The position numbers and the translations under genes are program-made. Positions 1 through 19,413 of a stretch of 19,413 nt of DNA are shown one piece after another. The notes under the pieces are model-generated. The model did not search any database. It was given only the letters and a program-made list of their open reading frames with translations, and was not told the origin of the DNA. Every line of letters starts with the position of its first letter. Positions within the stretch are counted from its first letter, which is position 1. This DNA comes from a virus (lineage: Duplodnaviria; Heunggongvirae; Uroviricota; Caudoviricetes): IMG/VR virus record IMGVR_UViG_2645727843_000010. One strand, written 5' to 3'.

Positions 1-318
1 ATGAAAAAGATAGCTGCTATATCATTAATTAGTATTTTTATTATGTCTGGTTGTGCTGTGCATAATGATGAGACAAGTATCGGTAAATTTGGTCTTGCAT
101 ATAAAAGTAATATTCAGCGTAAACTCGATAACCAATACTACACCGAAGCCGAAGCTTCTTTAGCCAGGGGCAGAATATCTGGTGCAGAAAATATAGTAAA
201 AAATGATGCAGCCCATTTCTGTGTTACTCAGGGCAAAAAAATGCAGATAGTTGACCTGAAGACAGAAGGTGCAGGATTACATGGCGTCGCTCGTCTGACA
301 TTCAAATGTGGAGAGTGA
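1..318 (+). CDS. yegR: Small putative lipoprotein, 105 aa, host chromosomal flank
   Basis: ATG at 1, complete ORF. N-terminal hydrophobic segment ending in a lipobox-like ...IMSGC. Sequence matches my recollection of E. coli YegR, which neighbours the ogrK/cyaR/yegQ locus. Symbol is from memory, not searched. Confidence 0.7.
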   Translation: MKKIAAISLISIFIMSGCAVHNDETSIGKFGLAYKSNIQRKLDNQYYTEAEASLARGRISGAENIVKNDAAHFCVTQGKKMQIVDLKTEGAGLHGVARLTFKCGE

Positions 319-380
319 GAATATTTTTTGGTAAGCGTCAAACATGCGCGTTCTGGTTGTGCTTAGCCGGAACCTGTGCG

Positions 381-413
381 AGCACGATGCCGTTACGTGA
401 AAGGCATCGTGCT
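381..413. other. Perfect 11-bp stem / 11-nt loop hairpin (agcacgatgcc-N11-ggcatcgtgct) downstream of yegR, with no U-tract
   Basis: Inverted repeat read directly from sequence. No T-run follows on either strand, so it is not a canonical intrinsic terminator. Confidence 0.4.
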
Positions 414-476
414 ATGAAGGGAGATTCTATCGATGTGGTCAATGGAAGACGGTGACCAGGGATAGGGCTTATGCAT

Positions 477-503
477 AAAAAATAAGCCCGTGTAAGGGAG
501 ATT
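477..503. repeat. attL core, 27 bp AAAAAATAAGCCCGTGTAAGGGAGATT
   Basis: Exact 27-bp copy of the sequence at 17881-17907. It matches the P2 attachment core as I recall it. Confidence 0.85.
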
Positions 504-582
504 TAGGGTGTCACCAGTAGGGGCTTTCAACGGTACTATGCGGGTTTGAGCGGCATAAATTACCACTGAAAGCCCTTAAACG

Positions 583-1596
583 TTACTCTACTGTGGACAC
601 TGTGTGGACACTCTCGGCCTCAGTACCACCTCTTAGCGGATTAAGAGAAATGGCGTCCTGAAGGTACTCTGGCGCAAAATGAGCGTAAACCATAGTTTGC
701 TCAATCCGCGTGTGGCCTAGTATCCGTTGTAGCGTGATAATACTTCCTCCATTAATCATGAAATGAGTGGCAAAGCTGTGCCTTAGTGCATGTGTGGCTT
801 GCCCCGTTGGCAAATCCGGTTTTATTGCTTTCATTGTTCGTCTGAAGCGAGGGTAATCAGCATCAGGGAATAAAAAACCTCGTTTGTTATCCGCGATCAT
901 TTTGGCAACAGCCTCTGAGATCGGGACGGTGCGTGGTTTGTTTGTTTTCGTTTTAACAAACGTGACGCGGTTATGGATGATATTTTCTGCTTTCAAACGA
1001 GCTGCTTCTCCCCAACGTGCTCCTGTACTCAGGCAAAGAATCGCAATCTTTTTATTGTCGCCGTCAAGTGCTGCAAGCAGTAAGGCAATTTCTTCCTGTG
1101 TGAGATAGCCTGTTTCTGGTTTTTCCTCCTTAAGCCTCTTTGTCCCTCTGATAGGGTGCTCACCAAAGAATAACTCCGCTTCAATCAGGGCTGTAAACAT
1201 GCCGCTAATACATGTTAAATCACGATTGATACTCGAAGGTTTAATACCCTGACTTCTTCGGGTGGCGCAGTACTGGCTGATAAGGGATTTCGTGATTTGA
1301 AATGCGCATGGGTCATTCGTTATTTTTGTGAAGATTTCAATTTTTCCAAGATTAGATTTCCCATGCTCTTCGTGTTTACCCTTTAAATCCCACCAGATCT
1401 GTGTCAGTTCCGACAGACGTCGTTTGTCTGTTGGTTTTGATAGCCATTCTTTATTGTGGTGGTTGTACAACGTGTATTTTTCGAAAGCGACAGCTTCGCT
1501 TTTCTTATCAAACTTCCTACGGATGCGTTTTCCATTACGTCCAGTAGGGCGGATGTCCACTTCATATCGACCATCATCGAGTTTTTTGATTGCCAT
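583..1596 (-). CDS. int: P2-type tyrosine integrase, 337 aa
   Basis: ATG (cat at 1594-1596), GGAGGG Shine-Dalgarno 8 nt upstream. C-terminal region has the tyrosine-recombinase residues (...HALRHSFATH...LGHTRIEQTMVYAH...). Near-identical to P2 Int from memory. Confidence 0.95.
   Translation of the reverse strand: MAIKKLDDGRYEVDIRPTGRNGKRIRRKFDKKSEAVAFEKYTLYNHHNKEWLSKPTDKRRLSELTQIWWDLKGKHEEHGKSNLGKIEIFTKITNDPCAFQITKSLISQYCATRRSQGIKPSSINRDLTCISGMFTALIEAELFFGEHPIRGTKRLKEEKPETGYLTQEEIALLLAALDGDNKKIAILCLSTGARWGEAARLKAENIIHNRVTFVKTKTNKPRTVPISEAVAKMIADNKRGFLFPDADYPRFRRTMKAIKPDLPTGQATHALRHSFATHFMINGGSIITLQRILGHTRIEQTMVYAHFAPEYLQDAISLNPLRGGTEAESVHTVSTVE
592..611. promoter_or_regulatory. Putative Int arm-type binding sites on the P' arm: tgtggacac direct repeat, 11-bp spacing
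   Basis: Two copies at 592-600 and 603-611, inside the 3' end of int. A matching pair with the same spacing lies on the P arm at 17822-17840. Confidence 0.45.
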
Positions 1597-8447: not shown

Positions 8448-10712
8448 TTATTTTTGACGAATCCTGATTTTTGGTTGTTCACGAACAACAATATCAGTTT
8501 CTTTCCAACCAAGATTATTTATTTCAACCTCGGCTTCGTTGTAGACTGTAGTAGAATTGGCAAGAGATCTTAACGTAATAGCCAATACAGCACGTTGAGG
8601 TGAAGATAGAGGCTCTTGCTCTGCTCGTCTCTGAACATCAAGTTTAAGTCTCCATTGCTCCCCATTTATACCTTGCGGAAATTGTTTTCTATAAACTTTG
8701 ACTGGAGACCATTTGAAGCCATTTTCTATCAGTACCTTTTCAAATAATTCACTCTTTTCTTTTATTTGTGGAATTTTTCCGCTATGTATCCATTTAGCGT
8801 TAACTGGATCATAAGTGTAAGTCCCGAATGACACATCCACATTAGAACGGCAATATTCAGATGGGTAGTCATAATCAAGCGGTGGAGAATAAACGAGTGT
8901 CATAATAATTTCACCTGTGAATTTTCCATCCTCAGTACGTAATGACTGTGGTATTACAAATGGCGTTCTACTGAATTCAATACCTTCTCGGGTATCTATT
9001 TCAAATAGAAATGTAATCTCATTTTTATTGCAACCAATAATATCATTTATATGATCGCTTGGGCGTCCAAATCCTTGATAATTAAACGCATAATGCTCCG
9101 TTTTGGCTGGTGAGTTTTTTAACGCAGAATGAATTAATAGTGCCTTGATACGTTCAGGCGATGGTGAAATAGAACCATTAACATCTAGTTCATGCCACAG
9201 TGATGCCGCTAAACTTGAGATTAACGGTGCTGATAAACTTGTGCCAATACTTTCGCAAAGAGCATTGTCCTCGCCAATAGCTATGATTCCGGTATGTTCA
9301 CAGTTTAATTTACTGTCACAATTACCTCCAAAGTGATTTATCTCTGGTTTGGGTATAAAGGCTGGGCCGGGACCTCTTCTAGAAAAAGATGAAGGTTCAA
9401 ATCTTTTGACCACAGAGTCAGACGATTCTAAATGGGCAACTGAGCCAACAGTTAATGAACGAACAGAATCTGCGGGGGCTGATATTCTGTCATGCCCACC
9501 TAATTCTTGAGGAGGCCAGGTTCGTTGAGGATCATAAATGTAGTTGCCGGATGCTACGACGAAAAGACAATCATGCTCATCATGAAGTGCATTTAAAAAA
9601 TGCCCCAATTCAGAGAAGCTGTCTTCAGAACATGGGGATTGACAACCTAATGACAGATTCCATACACGTACTTCTGGATAGGTGGTCACAGCCTCTCGGA
9701 TAGCTTTCATTAATTGTGGCAATTTGAGCGTACCATCTTTGGGAAAGGCTGCAACATCAACAATTTCAGCTTGGCATTGAGGAAAACCAGCATAGTTATT
9801 CAACCATCTTCCATTAATTGCTAAACTTGCAACCATGTTCCCATGAGAATAGTCGTGTTCTCCTTTTACTAAATCTAAACTATCCCAAATCCATGGCCTA
9901 AGTATGTTGTTATTGGGATCGACTCCGCTATCTATAATTCCGAGTAGTGGATAATGTTTATCCTCTTGAGGTAAGGGAAAATCATCTAGGTCTAGAGTTT
10001 CAGCAGGAATATATTGCGATACTGTATGAGTAAGACCAAATGTTGGCATAGGTTCTAATTTTCGTATGCCAATAAAACTTGCCAGTTGGGCGATGTTATC
10101 ATTCCCTTTTACTTCATATATACTCAAATCTGAACTGATATCATACTTTTTGGGTTTTTGTATTCCTAGTTCATCTGCAAATTCCATTAATTCTTTGTCG
10201 ATACTGCGGTTAGTTGTTCTATCTTTATGGTCAAAGAGTTTCAGAAGAAAACTATCTGATTTATTTTTATCTATAACATCATGGTTAAGACTAAAAGGTT
10301 CGATCTTTTCAATTACAGCAATATGTACTGTTCCATTATGAGAATTAGTGCTATTTTCAATTTTTTTGCGAAGTTGTGCTAACCCTTTTTCAGTAACACT
10401 TATAAGTAATTCTCCAAAATTATCACTGCCTATTACGGGACATGTATTATCACCTAATAGGCTTGATGGGCGATGTGACTTAGCAAGAGCTTTTTCATGA
10501 AGAGTAACTCTAGCCACCGCCGGTATATTGGGCCATTTTTTAAATGAGCTCTGGAAAAAATTTTTAACGTCATCGACTTCTTGTTTGAGTCTATTTTTTA
10601 GACTAGTTGTTACTGTTCGGATAGGTTGTTTCTTTCCGAAATTATATGTTTTTTCAGTAAAATCTTGAGGTGTCGCCTCAATTATTTTTATTGGTCTTTC
10701 TTTGTTACTCAT
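8448..10712 (-). CDS. Subtilisin-like serine protease (peptidase S8), 754 aa; IetS-like
   Basis: Catalytic motifs in canonical order: Asp (GIIDSGVD), His (YSHGNMVASLA), oxyanion Asn (VVASGN), Ser (GTSLSAPLISS). ATG overlaps the upstream ATPase stop (ATGA). Confidence 0.9.
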   Translation of the reverse strand: MSNKERPIKIIEATPQDFTEKTYNFGKKQPIRTVTTSLKNRLKQEVDDVKNFFQSSFKKWPNIPAVARVTLHEKALAKSHRPSSLLGDNTCPVIGSDNFGELLISVTEKGLAQLRKKIENSTNSHNGTVHIAVIEKIEPFSLNHDVIDKNKSDSFLLKLFDHKDRTTNRSIDKELMEFADELGIQKPKKYDISSDLSIYEVKGNDNIAQLASFIGIRKLEPMPTFGLTHTVSQYIPAETLDLDDFPLPQEDKHYPLLGIIDSGVDPNNNILRPWIWDSLDLVKGEHDYSHGNMVASLAINGRWLNNYAGFPQCQAEIVDVAAFPKDGTLKLPQLMKAIREAVTTYPEVRVWNLSLGCQSPCSEDSFSELGHFLNALHDEHDCLFVVASGNYIYDPQRTWPPQELGGHDRISAPADSVRSLTVGSVAHLESSDSVVKRFEPSSFSRRGPGPAFIPKPEINHFGGNCDSKLNCEHTGIIAIGEDNALCESIGTSLSAPLISSLAASLWHELDVNGSISPSPERIKALLIHSALKNSPAKTEHYAFNYQGFGRPSDHINDIIGCNKNEITFLFEIDTREGIEFSRTPFVIPQSLRTEDGKFTGEIIMTLVYSPPLDYDYPSEYCRSNVDVSFGTYTYDPVNAKWIHSGKIPQIKEKSELFEKVLIENGFKWSPVKVYRKQFPQGINGEQWRLKLDVQRRAEQEPLSSPQRAVLAITLRSLANSTTVYNEAEVEINNLGWKETDIVVREQPKIRIRQK

Positions 10713-11872
10713 AATATCTCTCTATAATTCTTAGTTAGCCTTGACACTTTAGCATTTGAAAGCCCTAGTATTTTTGCTATCTTTCGTATTGTAAATCTTT
10801 TGGGATTGTATTCTCTGAGAGTGGTCACAATCTTTATAAGTAAATTATCTTCTTCATCAAATGTAACTCCCTTCGCTTCTAAGATAGCCTCGACTAAAAA
10901 TCGGGTATCGATTTGTTTATTATTGTAAACCAGAGCATGTCGCTCAGATCTTAAGCAGCATTGTTCTATAAATGAGCAGTTTAGCCCTGATGATATTTCC
11001 GCAAGGTCATCAACAAAATCGTCATATGTAGCTTTTATGTTTGAATATTGTTCAAATAGTTGTTTTCTGACTTCAAAATCAGGCAATCCAATAGATATTC
11101 TATACTCAAAGCGCCTCCAAACTGCGCTATCTAGAAGATTTTCATGATTACTTGCAGCAATCAATATTGTTTCTTCAGGTAGATTGTCAATATTTTGCAA
11201 TAAAGAAACCACCACCCTCTTCAGTTCACCTAACTCATGCTGATCATCTCTAGCCTTTGCTAGAGAATCTAGTTCATCTAGAAATAAAACACATGGTGCT
11301 TTACTTGCATACTCAAATAGCTGCCTGATATTTTTAGAAGTAGACCCCAGATATGATGAGACTAAGGAGTCACATCTTGCAGTAAGAAGCGGTAAATTTA
11401 GACAGGATGCAATATATTTTGATGTCAAGGTTTTACCACAACCTGGTGGCCCATATAAAATCATAGAGGATGTCACGCCAAGACCGGCATCCTTTAATTC
11501 TTTAGCTCGTTCAGTGAAAGTCAAAAATTCTTTAATTTTTTTCAGAGTGCTATCTTTCAACAATGGGAGTTGAATTTCAGAAGACGGTTGAGTTACGTCT
11601 GCTAAATCAAATTTAGTTTCTTTATCTACAGGTAATGTATCAAGACGTTCAAAAATAGGTGATGTACTGCGTGATACTTTCTGCAAGTTAAACGTGTTTT
11701 TATCTTGAATACTACCTCTAATGGCTGAAGCAAGCTCAGGCAGCCCCATAGAATCATAGGAACGCGCGAGTTTCGAAGCCTGCCGAACAAAAGCAACTTT
11801 ATCCCCTTTGAGTCCAAGACTGATAAGCTGCGAAAGTATCTCGTTTGTGGTCATTTGTGATACAAACCTCAT
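10709..11872 (-). CDS. Classical AAA+ ATPase, 387 aa; IetA-like
   Basis: Walker A (GPPGCGKT), Walker B (VLFLDELD), sensor-1 Asn (IAASN), arginine fingers (AVWRRF). No strong Shine-Dalgarno seen, so the start is less certain (alternative Met 6 codons in). Confidence 0.88.
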   Translation of the reverse strand: MRFVSQMTTNEILSQLISLGLKGDKVAFVRQASKLARSYDSMGLPELASAIRGSIQDKNTFNLQKVSRSTSPIFERLDTLPVDKETKFDLADVTQPSSEIQLPLLKDSTLKKIKEFLTFTERAKELKDAGLGVTSSMILYGPPGCGKTLTSKYIASCLNLPLLTARCDSLVSSYLGSTSKNIRQLFEYASKAPCVLFLDELDSLAKARDDQHELGELKRVVVSLLQNIDNLPEETILIAASNHENLLDSAVWRRFEYRISIGLPDFEVRKQLFEQYSNIKATYDDFVDDLAEISSGLNCSFIEQCCLRSERHALVYNNKQIDTRFLVEAILEAKGVTFDEEDNLLIKIVTTLREYNPKRFTIRKIAKILGLSNAKVSRLTKNYREIL

Positions 11873-12113
11873 TAATCTGTTGTCTAAATGGCTTATAGGT
11901 GAGACAAATTTCTATTTTAATGTAGTTTATATGTATTTTGGTGAAACGAACACTATGTTTTACATAAATCTTTCAGGTTTGGAGTTCTTGGAGGGCATAG
12001 AGTTGCATCAATTTGCATTCTAATTAGACTTTTTTATTGCTATCGTATTCTACATGTGACTAGGTCTGCCCTTCCTGATGCGTTTGCATTAAAACCTCCC
12101 CATGAAGCGGGCG

Positions 12114-12132
12114 GGCGAGGCGGGGAAAGCAC
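12114..12132. other. Putative cos cohesive-end sequence ggcgaggcggggaaagcac
   Basis: Matches the P2 19-nt cohesive end as I recall it. Sits in a GC-rich block just downstream of Q, where P2 has cos. Confidence 0.55.
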
Positions 12133-15108: not shown

Positions 15109-15281
15109 GAATACCTCGCCGTGATGAATACACGGCAAGGCTACTGAGTCGCGTCCCGCGATTCGCTAAGGTGCTGTTGTGTCAGTGATAAGCCATCCGG
15201 GACTGATGGCGGAGGATGCGCATCGTCGGGAAACTGATGCCGACATGTGACTCCTCTAATCACTATTCAGGACTCCTGACA
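15109..15281. promoter_or_regulatory. Divergent P / O intergenic region; expected site of Ogr-dependent late promoters
   Basis: Position only. I scanned for a TGT-N12-ACA dyad and did not find a clean match. Confidence 0.3.
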
Positions 15282-16316
15282 ATGGCAAAAAAAGTCTCAA
15301 AATTCTTTCGTATCGGCGTTGAAGGTGACACCTGTGACGGGCGTGTCATCAGTGCGCAGGATATTCAGGAAATGGCCGAAACCTTTGACCCGCGTGTCTA
15401 TGGTTGCCGTATTAACCTGGAACATCTGCGCGGCATCCTGCCTGACGGTATTTTTAAGCGTTATGGCGATGTGGCCGAACTGAAGGCCGAAAAGATTGAC
15501 GATGATTCGGCGCTGAAAGGCAAATGGGCGCTGTTTGCGAAAATCACCCCGACCGATGACCTTATCGCGATGAACAAGGCCGCGCAGAAGGTCTACACCT
15601 CAATGGAAATTCAGCCGAACTTTGCCAACACCGGCAAATGTTATCTGGTGGGTCTGGCCGTCACCGATGACCCGGCAAGCCTCGGCACGGAATACCTGGA
15701 ATTCTGCCGCACGGCAAAACACAACCCCCTGAACCGCTTCAAATTAAGCCCTGAAAACCTGATTTCAGTGGCAACGCCTGTTGAGCTGGAATTTGAAGAC
15801 CTGCCTGAAACCGTGTTCACCGCCCTGACCGAAAAGGTGAAGTCCATTTTAGGGATGTTTGTTTTTATGCGCCAGACGCTGCCGCACCAGACCATGCAGC
15901 GTGAATCGGATTATCGCTGGCCGTCAAATTCCCGTATTGGTAAACGGGATGCCTATCAGTTTCTCGGTGTGGGTGAGGAAAACATGACGCTTGCCGGTGT
16001 GCTTTATCCCGAACTGACCGGCGGAAAGCTGACGATGACCACGCTCAGGCTGATGGCAGAGGAAGGCCGGGCGTGGCCGTTGCTGGATGGCACCGGCATG
16101 ATTTACGGCATGTATGTCATCAGCAAGGTGAGTGAAACAGGGAGTATTTTCTTTGCAGACGGCACACCCCGGAAAATTGATTTTACGCTGTCACTCACCC
16201 GCGTTGATGAATCACTGGCCGCGCTTTATGGCGATATCGGTAAACAGGCGGAATCGCTCATCGGTAAGGCTGGCAGTATGGCGACCAAATTCACGGGTAT
16301 GACGGGGGCGGGATAA
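15282..16316 (+). CDS. O: Chimeric ORF, 344 aa: N-terminal 189 aa of capsid scaffold/protease O fused in frame to about 155 aa of tail protein U; deletion junction near 15848
   Basis: ATG at 15282 (MAKKVSKFFRIGVEGDTCDG... is the P2 O N-terminus). After ...TEKVKSI the sequence switches to LGMFVFMRQTLPHQTMQRESDYRWPSNSRIGKRD..., which is P2 gpU-like. The track ORF begins 22 codons upstream without a Shine-Dalgarno. Confidence 0.85.
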   Translation: MAKKVSKFFRIGVEGDTCDGRVISAQDIQEMAETFDPRVYGCRINLEHLRGILPDGIFKRYGDVAELKAEKIDDDSALKGKWALFAKITPTDDLIAMNKAAQKVYTSMEIQPNFANTGKCYLVGLAVTDDPASLGTEYLEFCRTAKHNPLNRFKLSPENLISVATPVELEFEDLPETVFTALTEKVKSILGMFVFMRQTLPHQTMQRESDYRWPSNSRIGKRDAYQFLGVGEENMTLAGVLYPELTGGKLTMTTLRLMAEEGRAWPLLDGTGMIYGMYVISKVSETGSIFFADGTPRKIDFTLSLTRVDESLAALYGDIGKQAESLIGKAGSMATKFTGMTGAG

Positions 16317-17479: not shown

Positions 17480-17560
17480 TGTTTTTATTTTATCTATTTG
17501 TTTTATAAGGGTAAATTAACTAAAATGGCACCATCAACAAAACCGGAAGAGGTGCTCGCG

Positions 17561-17779
17561 ATGTTTCATTGTCCTTTATGCCAGCATGCCGCACATGCGC
17601 GTACAAGCCGCTATATCACTGACACGACAAAAGAGCGTTATCACCAGTGTCAGAACGTGAATTGCAGCGCCACGTTCATCACTTATGAGTCGGTACAGCG
17701 ATACATCGTGAAGCCGGGAGAAGTCCACGCCGTAAGACCGCACCCGTTGCCGTCAGGGCAGCAAATTATGTGGATGTAA
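17561..17779 (+). CDS. ogr: Ogr late-gene transcription activator, zinc finger, 72 aa
   Basis: ATG at 17561 (MFHCPLCQHAAHARTSRYITDTTKERYHQCQNVNCSATF...), four-Cys zinc finger. The track ORF starts at an upstream TTG. Matches P2 Ogr / E. coli OgrK length from memory. Confidence 0.95.
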   Translation: MFHCPLCQHAAHARTSRYITDTTKERYHQCQNVNCSATFITYESVQRYIVKPGEVHAVRPHPLPSGQQIMWM

Positions 17780-17792
17780 TTACAAACAGGAA

Positions 17793-17816
17793 GCCCCTCA
17801 GTCGAGGGGCTTTTTT
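17793..17816 (+). terminator. Rho-independent terminator after ogr (gcccctc-agtc-gaggggc then T6)
   Basis: Perfect 7-bp GC stem followed by TTTTTT. Confidence 0.8.
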
Positions 17817-17879
17817 GTCGATGTGGTCAATGTGTGGACGTGACCAGAAATAAATCCTTTTATTTCATTGTATTACGCG

Positions 17880-17967
17880 TAAAAAATAAGCCCGTGTAAG
17901 GGAGATTACACAGGCTAAGGAGGTGGTTCCTGGTACAGCTAGCATTTTATGGGTTATGTTTTTCAGC
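17880..17967 (-). ncRNA. cyaR: CyaR (RyeE) Hfq-dependent sRNA
   Basis: Reverse complement reads GCTGAAAAACATAACCCATAAAATGCTAGCTGTACCAGGAACCACCTCCTTAGCCTGTGTAATCTCCCTTACACGGGCTTATTTTTT, which matches CyaR as I recall it, including the CCACCTCC anti-Shine-Dalgarno region and the terminator hairpin plus U-tract. Ends are within about 2 nt. Confidence 0.88.
17881..17907. repeat. attR core, 27 bp, identical to 477-503; also the 3'-terminal 27 nt of cyaR
   Basis: Exact repeat read from sequence. Confidence 0.85.
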
Positions 17968-18002
17968 GAAACGGATGATAACCTTAATAAATGCAGCTGT
18001 AT

Positions 18003-18018
18003 GTGATCGGTTTCTAAG
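18003..18018. promoter_or_regulatory. Putative CRP site upstream of cyaR (TGTGA-N6-TCTAA)
   Basis: One consensus half-site and one weak half-site, centred about 43 nt upstream of the inferred CyaR 5' end, close to a class II position. cyaR is known to be CRP-activated. Confidence 0.5.
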
Positions 18019-18051
18019 AATTTTCCATCCGGGAAAAATAATCGAAATTAA

Positions 18052-19413
18052 TCACTTACCGTGGGGATTACGCGTGGTTTCCCCGGAGAAATTACGCATC
18101 AGCAGCGCGTAATTGAGCTCAAGATCCTGCGGGACCGGGAGCCACACAGTATAACCATCGCCTGGTGCTATCGGCATAGCTTCGCCTTTGGCGTTTTCCA
18201 TGTGCTCAAGGGTAAAATTAATGTTGCCTTGCGGCGTCATCAGCTCAAGGCTGTCGCCAACGGAGAATTTATTTTTCACCGCTACCGCCGCGAGGTCCCC
18301 CTTGCGCTCACCGGTAAACTCACCAACAAACTGCTGGCGGTCAGAAACTGAATAACCGTATTCGTAGTTCTGATAATCGTCGTGAGTATGACGACGCAGG
18401 AAACCTTCGGTATAGCCACGATGCGCCAGACCTTCCAGAGTTTCCAGCAGGCTGGTATCGAACGGTTTTCCCGCAGCGGCGTCATCGATAGCTTTGCGGT
18501 AAACCTGTGCGGTGCGTGCACAATAGTAGAAAGATTTGGTACGACCTTCGATTTTCAGCGAATGCACGCCCATTTTGGTCAGGCGTTCTACATGGGCGAT
18601 GGCGCGCAGATCTTTCGAGTTCATGATGTAAGTGCCGTGCTCATCTTCAAACGCGGTCATATACTCGCCCGGACGCTGGGCCTCTTCGATCATAAACACT
18701 TTGTCGGTTGGTGCGCCGATACCCAGCGTCGGCTCAACATTTTGCACCGGAATCGGCTCGTACTTGTGTACGATGTTGCCAACATCATCTTCTTTCCCTT
18801 CCTGGACGTTGTACTCCCAGCGGCAGGCGTTGGTGCAGGTGCCCTGGTTCGGGTCGCGCTTGTTGATATAGCCAGAGAGCAGGCAGCGACCGGAGTAGGC
18901 CATGCACAGCGCGCCGTGAACGAAGATCTCGATCTCCATATCCGGCACCTGATTGCGGATCTCTTCAATCTCTTCCAGCGACAGCTCGCGAGAGAGGATC
19001 ACGCGGGTCAGGCCCATTTGCTGCCAGAATTTCACCGTCGCCCAGTTCACGGCGTTAGCCTGCACCGAAAGGTGGATCGGCATTTCAGGGAAGTGCTCAC
19101 GCACCAGCATAATCAGCCCTGGATCGGACATAATCAGCGCATCCGGCCCCATTTCCACCACCGGTTTCAGGTCACGGATAAAGGTTTTCAGCTTGGCGTT
19201 GTGCGGTGCAATGTTGACCACGACATAAAACTTTTTCCCCAGCGCGTGGGCTTCATTGATGCCGAGCTGAAGATTTTCGTGGTTGAATTCGTTGTTGCGC
19301 ACACGCAGGGAATAACGCGGCTGGCCCGCATAAACAGCATCTGCGCCATAAGCGAAAGCGTAACGCATATTTTTCAGCGTTCCCGCCGGGGAAAGGAGTT
19401 CCGGTTTAAACAT
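18052..19413 (-). CDS. yegQ: Peptidase U32-family protein (YegQ/TrhP-like), 453 aa, host chromosomal flank
   Basis: Complete ORF whose ATG is the last 3 nt of the window. Sequence recognised as E. coli YegQ from memory; adjacent to cyaR as in E. coli. Confidence 0.88.
   Translation of the reverse strand: MFKPELLSPAGTLKNMRYAFAYGADAVYAGQPRYSLRVRNNEFNHENLQLGINEAHALGKKFYVVVNIAPHNAKLKTFIRDLKPVVEMGPDALIMSDPGLIMLVREHFPEMPIHLSVQANAVNWATVKFWQQMGLTRVILSRELSLEEIEEIRNQVPDMEIEIFVHGALCMAYSGRCLLSGYINKRDPNQGTCTNACRWEYNVQEGKEDDVGNIVHKYEPIPVQNVEPTLGIGAPTDKVFMIEEAQRPGEYMTAFEDEHGTYIMNSKDLRAIAHVERLTKMGVHSLKIEGRTKSFYYCARTAQVYRKAIDDAAAGKPFDTSLLETLEGLAHRGYTEGFLRRHTHDDYQNYEYGYSVSDRQQFVGEFTGERKGDLAAVAVKNKFSVGDSLELMTPQGNINFTLEHMENAKGEAMPIAPGDGYTVWLPVPQDLELNYALLMRNFSGETTRNPHGK

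Follow-up and report, generated by a model that had tools for sequence, protein, structure and literature searches.

The DNA between yegR and the attL core at the left end of the window (the whole stretch of DNA that was analysed, 19,413 nt) is neither ordinary host DNA nor a recent scar. Positions 319-476 probably form the right end of a fossil, ~0.8 kb in length, that was left by a P2/186-like prophage and has become fixed in E. coli. The fossil is species-wide and of a well-known type; no earlier description of it was found in the literature searched, a body of papers that did not include the 1992 paper on P2 attachment sites. Its presence would explain why the classical P2 attachment site looks phage-like on its bacterial side: the attB of E. 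coli is itself flanked by what an earlier lysogeny left behind.

The history that we infer begins with a single ancestral integration. A P2-like phage carrying yegR in the cargo position beside cos would have entered the 3' end of cyaR after the lineage of Escherichia sp. E1V33 split off and before the radiation of E. coli. Deletions would have taken everything from int to A, the early block, and everything from cos to ogr, the late block. Left behind would be, next to yegS, a decayed attL core and some P' sequence, then yegR itself, a portion of the cos-left region and a P arm that leads into the attR core. That core would have been kept intact because it is the CyaR terminator, and would in this way still serve as attB, while the adjoining P arm drifted, losing its second Int repeat and having its A+T-rich segment shortened. 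Present-day P2-like phages, the window's defective one among them, would integrate into the fossil's right core, and each attL that they form there would therefore read fossil-P, O, P'.

The present P2-like element occupies 17.4 kb between 27-nt repeats, and portal and terminase genes are also found within it (Table 1). The element is defective, the capsid-to-tail block from N to T having been lost, since a single ORF fuses gpO to gpU. Its IetS/IetA anti-phage defence pair lies directly left of cos, a cargo position and the one proposed for yegR in the ancient element. At the right end, the CyaR RNA matches Rfam family RF00112 (100.7 bits, E = 1.9e-19, 17884-17969 on the minus strand), and yegQ/trhP follows cyaR. 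We take the attachment site at cyaR to be locI of the P2 literature and presumably the site that P2 prefers. It is clearly usable: ~668 genomes have an attL bearing a P' arm like that of the window. The cyaR RNA has been described as the insertion site of P2-type prophages, with "ogr-D'" there in K-12 (E. coli W genome paper, PMC3032704).

Table 1. Features of the left flank, of the present P2-like element and of its attachment sites, in window coordinates
Feature	Position	Strand	Remarks
yegR	1-318	+	105-aa lipoprotein gene; PF27694 YegR (precomputed for its matches), phrog_21109
Spacer from yegR to attL core	319-476		158 nt
Relic of region left of cos (right end of mature P2/186-like genome)	323-382	+	Profile match, positions 58-117
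Hairpin	381-391/403-413		Perfect 11-bp stem, 11-nt loop
10-mer aagggagatt	417-426	+	Equals last 10 nt of the 27-nt core
Decayed P arm of ancient P2-like attP	427-476	+	One intact arm-type Int site, a degenerate second, A+T-rich part ~16 nt shorter
attL core of present prophage	477-503	+	27 nt, AAAAAATAAGCCCGTGTAAGGGAGATT; identical to 17881-17907; duplicates the 3' portion of the CyaR terminator
P' arm of present element	504-612	+	Two arm-type Int sites, 592-599 and 603-610 (reading and motif search)
int	583-1596	minus	PF24624 and PF00589
IetA/IetS anti-phage defence pair	8448-11872	minus	IetS, 754-aa subtilase; IetA, 387-aa AAA ATPase
cos of present element	~12075-12122
gpO-gpU fusion ORF	15216-16316	+	366 aa; N-terminal gpO (scaffold protease, PF05929 positions 1-185) joined to gpU (PF06995)
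D	16316-17479		Gene of present element
ogr	17498-17779		PF04606
ogr terminator hairpin	~17787-17815	+
Intact P arm of present element	within 17787-17880, after the ogr terminator	+	Arm sites 17822-17829 and 17833-17840, then A+T-rich segment
attR core and complete cyaR sRNA gene	17881-17969	minus	Live attachment site

The case for phage ancestry starts with the 50 nt that abut the core. The original prediction had listed a hairpin, a 10-nt copy of the core's 3' end, a 15-mer and a 7-mer in this flank, and direct reading finds all four in place. The 15-mer, tcgatgtggtcaatg, at 430-444 is identical to 17818-17832 and the 7-mer tgaccag at 453-459 to 17841-17847, with the same 8-nt spacing between them in both copies. 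Within the 15-mer lies an intact arm-type Int site, TGTGGTCA, at 434-441; the second arm-type repeat, which reads TGTGGACG in the phage, has become GAAGACGG in the flank and is degenerate, as had been claimed. The pairwise alignment proposed as a check bears the relationship out: in a global alignment of 427-476 with 17816-17880, 39 of 48 columns are identical and none of 2000 shuffles does as well; the local alignment of 380-476 with 17780-17880 scores 38, which none of 1000 shuffles reaches. The homology runs up to the core itself (ttatgcat in the flank, ttacgcgt in the phage), a point absent from the original prediction. When the whole relic is compared with the whole prophage (blastn, word size 7), the P arm is the sole significant match (E = 0.003); other 10- to 12-mers common to the two were set aside as chance at that search size. 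The motif TGTGGWCR, expected 1.85 times in the window, occurs nine times and marks the P' arm, the P arm and the flank. Positions 427-476 can also be aligned with P arms from nine further genera, all belonging to P2-like prophages at cyaR (10 P arms in total), colinearly, abutting the core and in the same orientation, as is expected of a sequence descended from one. Thus the left junction is a decayed P-O-P' rather than a clean B-O-P', as originally proposed: a genuine but decayed P2-type P arm abuts the core in attL.

The arm is decayed by the measure of a functional one, which has two TGTGGWCR direct repeats ~11 nt apart and, between the arm sites and the core, the A+T-rich segment gaaataaatccttttatttca, thought to be an IHF site, with phage-like spacing. 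In the flank only 434-441 is intact, and the common allele is short by ~16 nt in the A+T-rich part. An intermediate condition is seen in the allele of JNE112863 (L094), in which 12 extra nucleotides, tcaatccgtctc, stand between window positions 463 and 464 and align to the A+T-rich part of the P arm. This type of allele, found in ~230 of 5424 genomes, is identical to the P arm, apart from substitutions, at 46 of 60 columns (0/2000 shuffles as good). Some strains have the phage-type ttacgcgt adjoining the core. It was considered as a footprint of lysogeny and rejected: it occurs at empty as well as occupied sites and is an ordinary polymorphism. Further decayed P-arm-like sequences, ggtcaatgacggcagttgtggaca and gagatggtcagtgcgtacag among them, stand in the 60 nt beside the cyaR core at two other loci (L056 and L061); such fossils may be common at cyaR across genera.

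Between the cos-left relic and the P arm matters are less clear. The hairpin at 381-413 folds at -21.1 kcal/mol (z = -3.8; 0/200 shuffles as stable), and across seven E. coli alleles its stem is kept and its loop varies. It was rejected as a Rho-independent terminator: neither strand has a T run, and a terminator scan of 1-700 came back empty. The hairpin and the 10-mer, the latter originally proposed as a partial copy of the core, can be assigned to neither P arm, core nor cos. The stretch 383-429 has no significant similarity to the P arm, nor to the last 49 nt before cos, for which 520 of 2000 shuffles are as good. Because 383-429 matches nothing significantly, the right-hand deletion junction can be placed only somewhere within it.

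The 10-mer at 417-426 may be chance (p ~0.003), it may, as far as its sequence goes, be the decayed tail of an ogr terminator (it aligns loosely with the descending arm and T run of phage ogr terminators), or it may be a middle-core remnant from a second, nested lysogeny. The last of these would amount to a different history for the flank, in which a second P2-like phage integrated into the right core of the yegR element and then lost everything between the end of its attL core and its P arm. This nested history is unlikely. In its favour, the 10-mer is the exact 3' end of the core and lies 3 nt ahead of the P arm; exact core matches of at least 10 nt arise in 13 of 5000 shuffles of 319-429, which makes the 10-mer moderately unlikely by chance; and the ggcatcgtgct to its left is, by eye, loosely like the core's gcccgtgt. 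Against this, two extra events are needed, the 17 nt left of the 10-mer match the core poorly (15/27 ungapped over 400-426, by eye), the 10-mer also aligns with a decayed ogr terminator tail, and phylogroup A alleles match at only 8 of 10 positions (K-12 and BL21 have aaggaggatt in place of the 10-mer).

The same seven divergent alleles are invariant over 427-452, and neighbouring positions vary. The invariance of 430-452 could hint at constraint rather than pure drift, and this raises the question whether the fossil arm is under selection, TGTGGTCA binding the arm-binding domain of P2 Int and so making this a preferred attB, or affecting excision from attL. One arm-type site is, after all, intact, and the P2 literature gives the cyaR site (locI) as the preferred one. 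The sequence makes such a role distinctly improbable: an invariant run of ~30 nt at ~10% variable sites has a P of only ~0.03-0.05, the arm no longer has its second repeat or its A+T-rich segment, a 12-nt indel makes its distance from the core differ among alleles, and the attB of a tyrosine integrase normally needs the core only. The arm is most likely inert, because its second repeat is lost, its A+T-rich part is truncated and its spacing differs between alleles.

How widely the flank is distributed decides what kind of relic it is. An artificial empty site, made by joining 300-503 of the window to 17908-18110, was searched in 5426 complete E. coli genomes and gave single-piece matches of 100% identity in many E. 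coli strains (407/407; H41-H46). Strain E2865 (L002) provides an example: the identical flank runs straight into a complete cyaR, with no prophage. The flank as such (query 200-503 of the window, at least 80% coverage) is present in 5388 of the 5426 genomes, and its alleles span diverse phylogroups. The flank is intrinsic to the E. coli attB, not strain-specific, since strains with an empty site and nearly all genomes carry it. An empty-site strain with the same flank had been named as the observation that would make the similarity intrinsic to attB instead of a phage remnant. That observation was made, but it does not choose between the two, which is a false choice because the flank of the E. 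coli attB is itself a fixed phage fossil, as the outgroups, the decayed attL and the cos-left homology described below indicate.

These counts also bear on the proposal, put forward originally, of an older P2-like remnant peculiar to this strain or lineage, similar to that of K-12, into which the present element integrated or with which it recombined. The P-arm homology on which it was based is real, K-12 proves that P2 remnants occur at the locus, and phage ancestry of the flank stands; the age and strain-specific distribution do not. With a 100% identical flank at unoccupied cyaR sites and in almost every genome, a strain-specific remnant is refuted. The likeness drawn to the ogrK remnant of K-12 likewise fails: K-12 has the flank too (93.7% identity), immediately to the left of its own D'-ogrK remnant. 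K-12 thus holds two separate generations of P2 relics side by side.

If the flank is common property of E. coli, its origin has to be sought outside the species. The yegQ-cyaR neighbourhood was taken from 80 enterobacterial species, and cyaR, including its terminator, is conserved in all 80 loci. In E1V33 (L005) and ~50 other enterobacterial species the cyaR terminator lies ~85-130 nt from the start of yegS, and in E1V33 and most of the 80 loci there is no yegR and nothing like 319-476 between yegS and cyaR. Genera with the short spacer include Klebsiella, Kosakonia, Trabulsiella (T. odontotermitis), Citrobacter (C. amalonaticus) and, with many species, Enterobacter. Since these outgroups have neither yegR nor its flanks, both were inserted in the E. 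coli lineage, precisely at the integration site of P2-like phages. The close outgroup without yegR is E1V33 alone, in a sample that lacks E. fergusonii, E. marmotae and E. ruysiae, and a loss of yegR in E1V33 is argued against by the more distant genera only. At six of the loci (L004, L063, L069, L073, L077 and L079, mainly Enterobacter) a different integrated element abuts the cyaR core; its ORF ends ...gagaaggc directly at the core, and it has no P2-type P arm. One of these records, L004, names Enterobacter hormaechei, but in YegQ and cyaR it is 100% identical to E. coli.

The left boundary of the insertion can be located next to yegS. The B arm, ...gtcagaacaggatgaaagtcg.gagg, is common to E. 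coli and E1V33; the core comes next in E1V33, where E. coli carries aaaaagtcagttcaagtatggaggatt instead. This sequence agrees with the core in 18 of 27 positions (binomial P ~9e-5), or in 13 of 22 when the leading A run is left out. The ~30 nt that follow align, in the same register, with P' as found in the present element and in the E. albertii relic described below. The strength of this evidence depends on the fixed register; in a free local alignment the left boundary reaches p ~0.01-0.02. The direct repeats of the relic are accordingly unequal: the right core copy is perfect, and the left, 18/27 in fixed register, is weak in free alignment.

A further segment of probable phage origin lies just downstream of yegR. 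The ~165 nt that precede the cos nick are conserved across Peduoviridae. A weak match of the flank to phage 186 (E = 0.5), with which it shares the 14-mer CGTTCTGGTTGTGC, prompted a test of this region, in which a profile built from 11 Peduoviridae right ends was used in a 2-Mb search. In a scan of viral contigs for CGTTCTGGTTGTGC itself, the only extended matches were E. coli prophage contigs that include the yegR flank, and the rest were random 14-mers. The profile match of the short allele found in the window has E = 0.096. A 174-bp indel right after the yegR stop (after window position 324) distinguishes it from a longer allele, common in E. coli and represented by L001 (1626-1799) and JJ1887 (L093), in which the match extends from position 45 to 117, with E = 1.1e-4 and 8e-5, respectively. 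Because the homology is extended (from profile position 58 back to 45), the longer allele is probably ancestral and the window allele a deletion. In E. coli 47 nt remain unmatched after the cos-left homology, and in the phages 49 nt separate the corresponding point from the nick; given the shuffle result for 383-429, a junction at cos is not claimed for E. coli. Taken together, the segment is missing from the orthologous site in relatives and its interior is phage-derived, the P arm being accompanied by the cos-left match of the long allele, with no phage protein gene left.

Transfer in the opposite direction has also to be considered. Phages are known to gain att-flanking DNA by aberrant excision, and on this general precedent an ancestor of P2 might have taken up the E. 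coli B arm, which would then be the source of the phage's P arm. This is very unlikely to be the explanation. The P arm, with both arm repeats and the A+T-rich segment, is found in P2-like cyaR prophages of Trabulsiella, Citrobacter, Huaxiibacter, Scandinavium, Enterobacter and others, genera in which the host flank lacks the sequence; the phage copy is complete, with repeats that match those of the P' arm, and the host copy is degenerate; and aberrant excision leaves the cos-left and P' relics in the host flank unexplained. Least credible is the idea that native host DNA, by chance or through its composition, came to look like this without any phage ancestry: the sequence is indeed intrinsic to attB in all E. 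coli, but no shuffle in either series attains the P-arm score, the match is colinear, correctly oriented, adjacent to the core and holds against the P arms of the nine other genera, the whole yegR segment is missing in the outgroups, and the cos-left and attL + P' homologies are independent of it.

What yegR contributes is chiefly its position. YegR is almost confined to E. coli and Shigella, with homologs of 47-81% identity at unrelated loci in other bacteria (L084, L087, L090 and L098), the neighbourhoods of which comprise an IS-rich island by an MFS transporter, the vicinity of a UDG gene, and glutaminase, nitroreductase and ivy genes; scattered loci of this kind are consistent with a small mobile cargo gene. 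Candidate orthologs from sister species did not survive inspection: of the variants of 76-88% identity, two (L096, L097) come from apparently error-prone E. coli assemblies with fragmented genes, and the others (L090, L098) are homologs at a different locus. A comparison of YegR and the flank with 50,697 phage records placed no yegR homolog inside any phage genome; the matches were confined to records that include the host flank (ON470606, AY639599), plus the weak one to 186. The lipoprotein has been detected in the O157 proteome (PMC3210124), and a yegR knockout had no chemostat phenotype (PMC3708739). The literature searched, with the 1992 attachment-site paper outside it, does not link yegR to a prophage relic. 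Its position makes yegR a likely cargo gene (moron) of the ancient P2-like prophage, and the one that survived.

Several consequences follow if the fossil is what it seems. It gives yegR an origin, likely as phage cargo that has outlived its prophage, as cdtABC has in E. albertii. Predictors of prophage boundaries and att callers may misplace attL in P2 lysogens at cyaR, where P-arm-like and core-like repeats stand on the host side. More generally, no new mechanism is involved, and prophage decay can be traced to an extreme degree through non-coding att and cos signatures.

The closest parallels are two relics at the same site. In E. albertii NBRC 107761 (L006, 6533-9990) cdtABC lies inside a P2-like relic between cyaR and yegS, the order being yegS, a well-kept attL with P', cdtCBA, the cos-left region, an apparent IS transposase-gene fragment, a partial P arm, the core and cyaR. 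The cos-left homology ends there 14 nt after the nick, so as to include 14 nt of cohesive end; the transposase-gene fragment at the junction is putative and was judged by eye. In bacterium BS0013 (L065, 6533-9204) a 2.6-kb relic consists of a WapI-like immunity gene, cos-left homology that stops 3 nt before the cos nick, a terminator, P arm and core. In both, cargo on the cos side survives and the early and late blocks of the phage are lost. The E. albertii relic shares with the yegR fossil its site between yegS and cyaR and its order of attL, P', cargo, cos-left, P arm and core; it differs in its cargo, a toxin operon, in its near-intact attL and P', and in the apparent IS fragment at the deletion junction. 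It suggests a younger, independent event, since attL and P' are still nearly intact. The two relics provide hints of deletions anchored at cos. Terminase might cut the cos of a chromosomal prophage, after which the late-gene arm would disappear as far as the att P arm. That cargo-only relics arise recurrently by this route or, as a second possibility, that the fossil Int site binds Int and biases the choice of attB, is a speculation that we consider unlikely to be right. Cdt-V is carried by P2-like prophages in E. coli O157 (Svab et al. 2013, as cited in PMC5136569). The cdt-bearing P2-like prophages and remnants resemble the yegR fossil in that cargo by cos is retained while phage genes go.

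K-12 offers the nearest relative by place. Its D'-ogrK (yegZ-ogrK) P2 remnant at the cyaR site (locI) was reportedly described by Barreiro and Haggard-Ljungquist in 1992. To the right of the flank K-12 has a truncated core, D'-ogrK, an intact P arm and the attR core; in BW25113 (L003, 1683-1700) the attL core is cut after ...aagcccgtgta and fused to the 3' portion of gene D. Because the core is truncated and joined to D, the deletion behind the K-12 remnant began inside the core. The remnant has in common with the yegR fossil the att site, the phage family and its nature as a deletion derivative that keeps the attR-side P arm by an intact core. It is recent and lineage-specific, with recognisable phage genes, an intact P arm and a start within a truncated attL core, whereas the yegR fossil is older, nearly species-wide, and without any phage gene, consisting of cargo and non-coding fragments only. 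The truncated D and the ogr that stand between the yegR flank and cyaR in K-12 are absent from 319-476, and the D and ogr of the window belong to the present element. E. coli HS-01 (L099, 480-830) has a shortened remnant of the K-12 type, ~333 nt long, with many substitutions and small deletions and an odd G/T-rich composition, which reflects either extreme decay or an artefact of assembly.

The P arm of P2 attP is reported to consist of two arm-type Int repeats and an IHF site (Yu and Haggard-Ljungquist, 1993). The flank resembles it in sequence, in orientation, in adjacency to the core and in one intact arm-type repeat, and departs from it in the degenerate second repeat, the truncated A+T-rich part and the altered spacing. 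The class to which the fossil belongs is that of the "grounded" or domesticated prophages. In these (reviewed in PMC6379469) as in the yegR fossil, deletions erode the prophage while a single gene, useful or neutral, is kept and becomes fixed in the host species. The fossil is an extreme case, being reduced to ~0.8 kb and recognisable only by the non-coding homology of its att, P-arm and cos-left sequences, and it is still the flank of an active attB.
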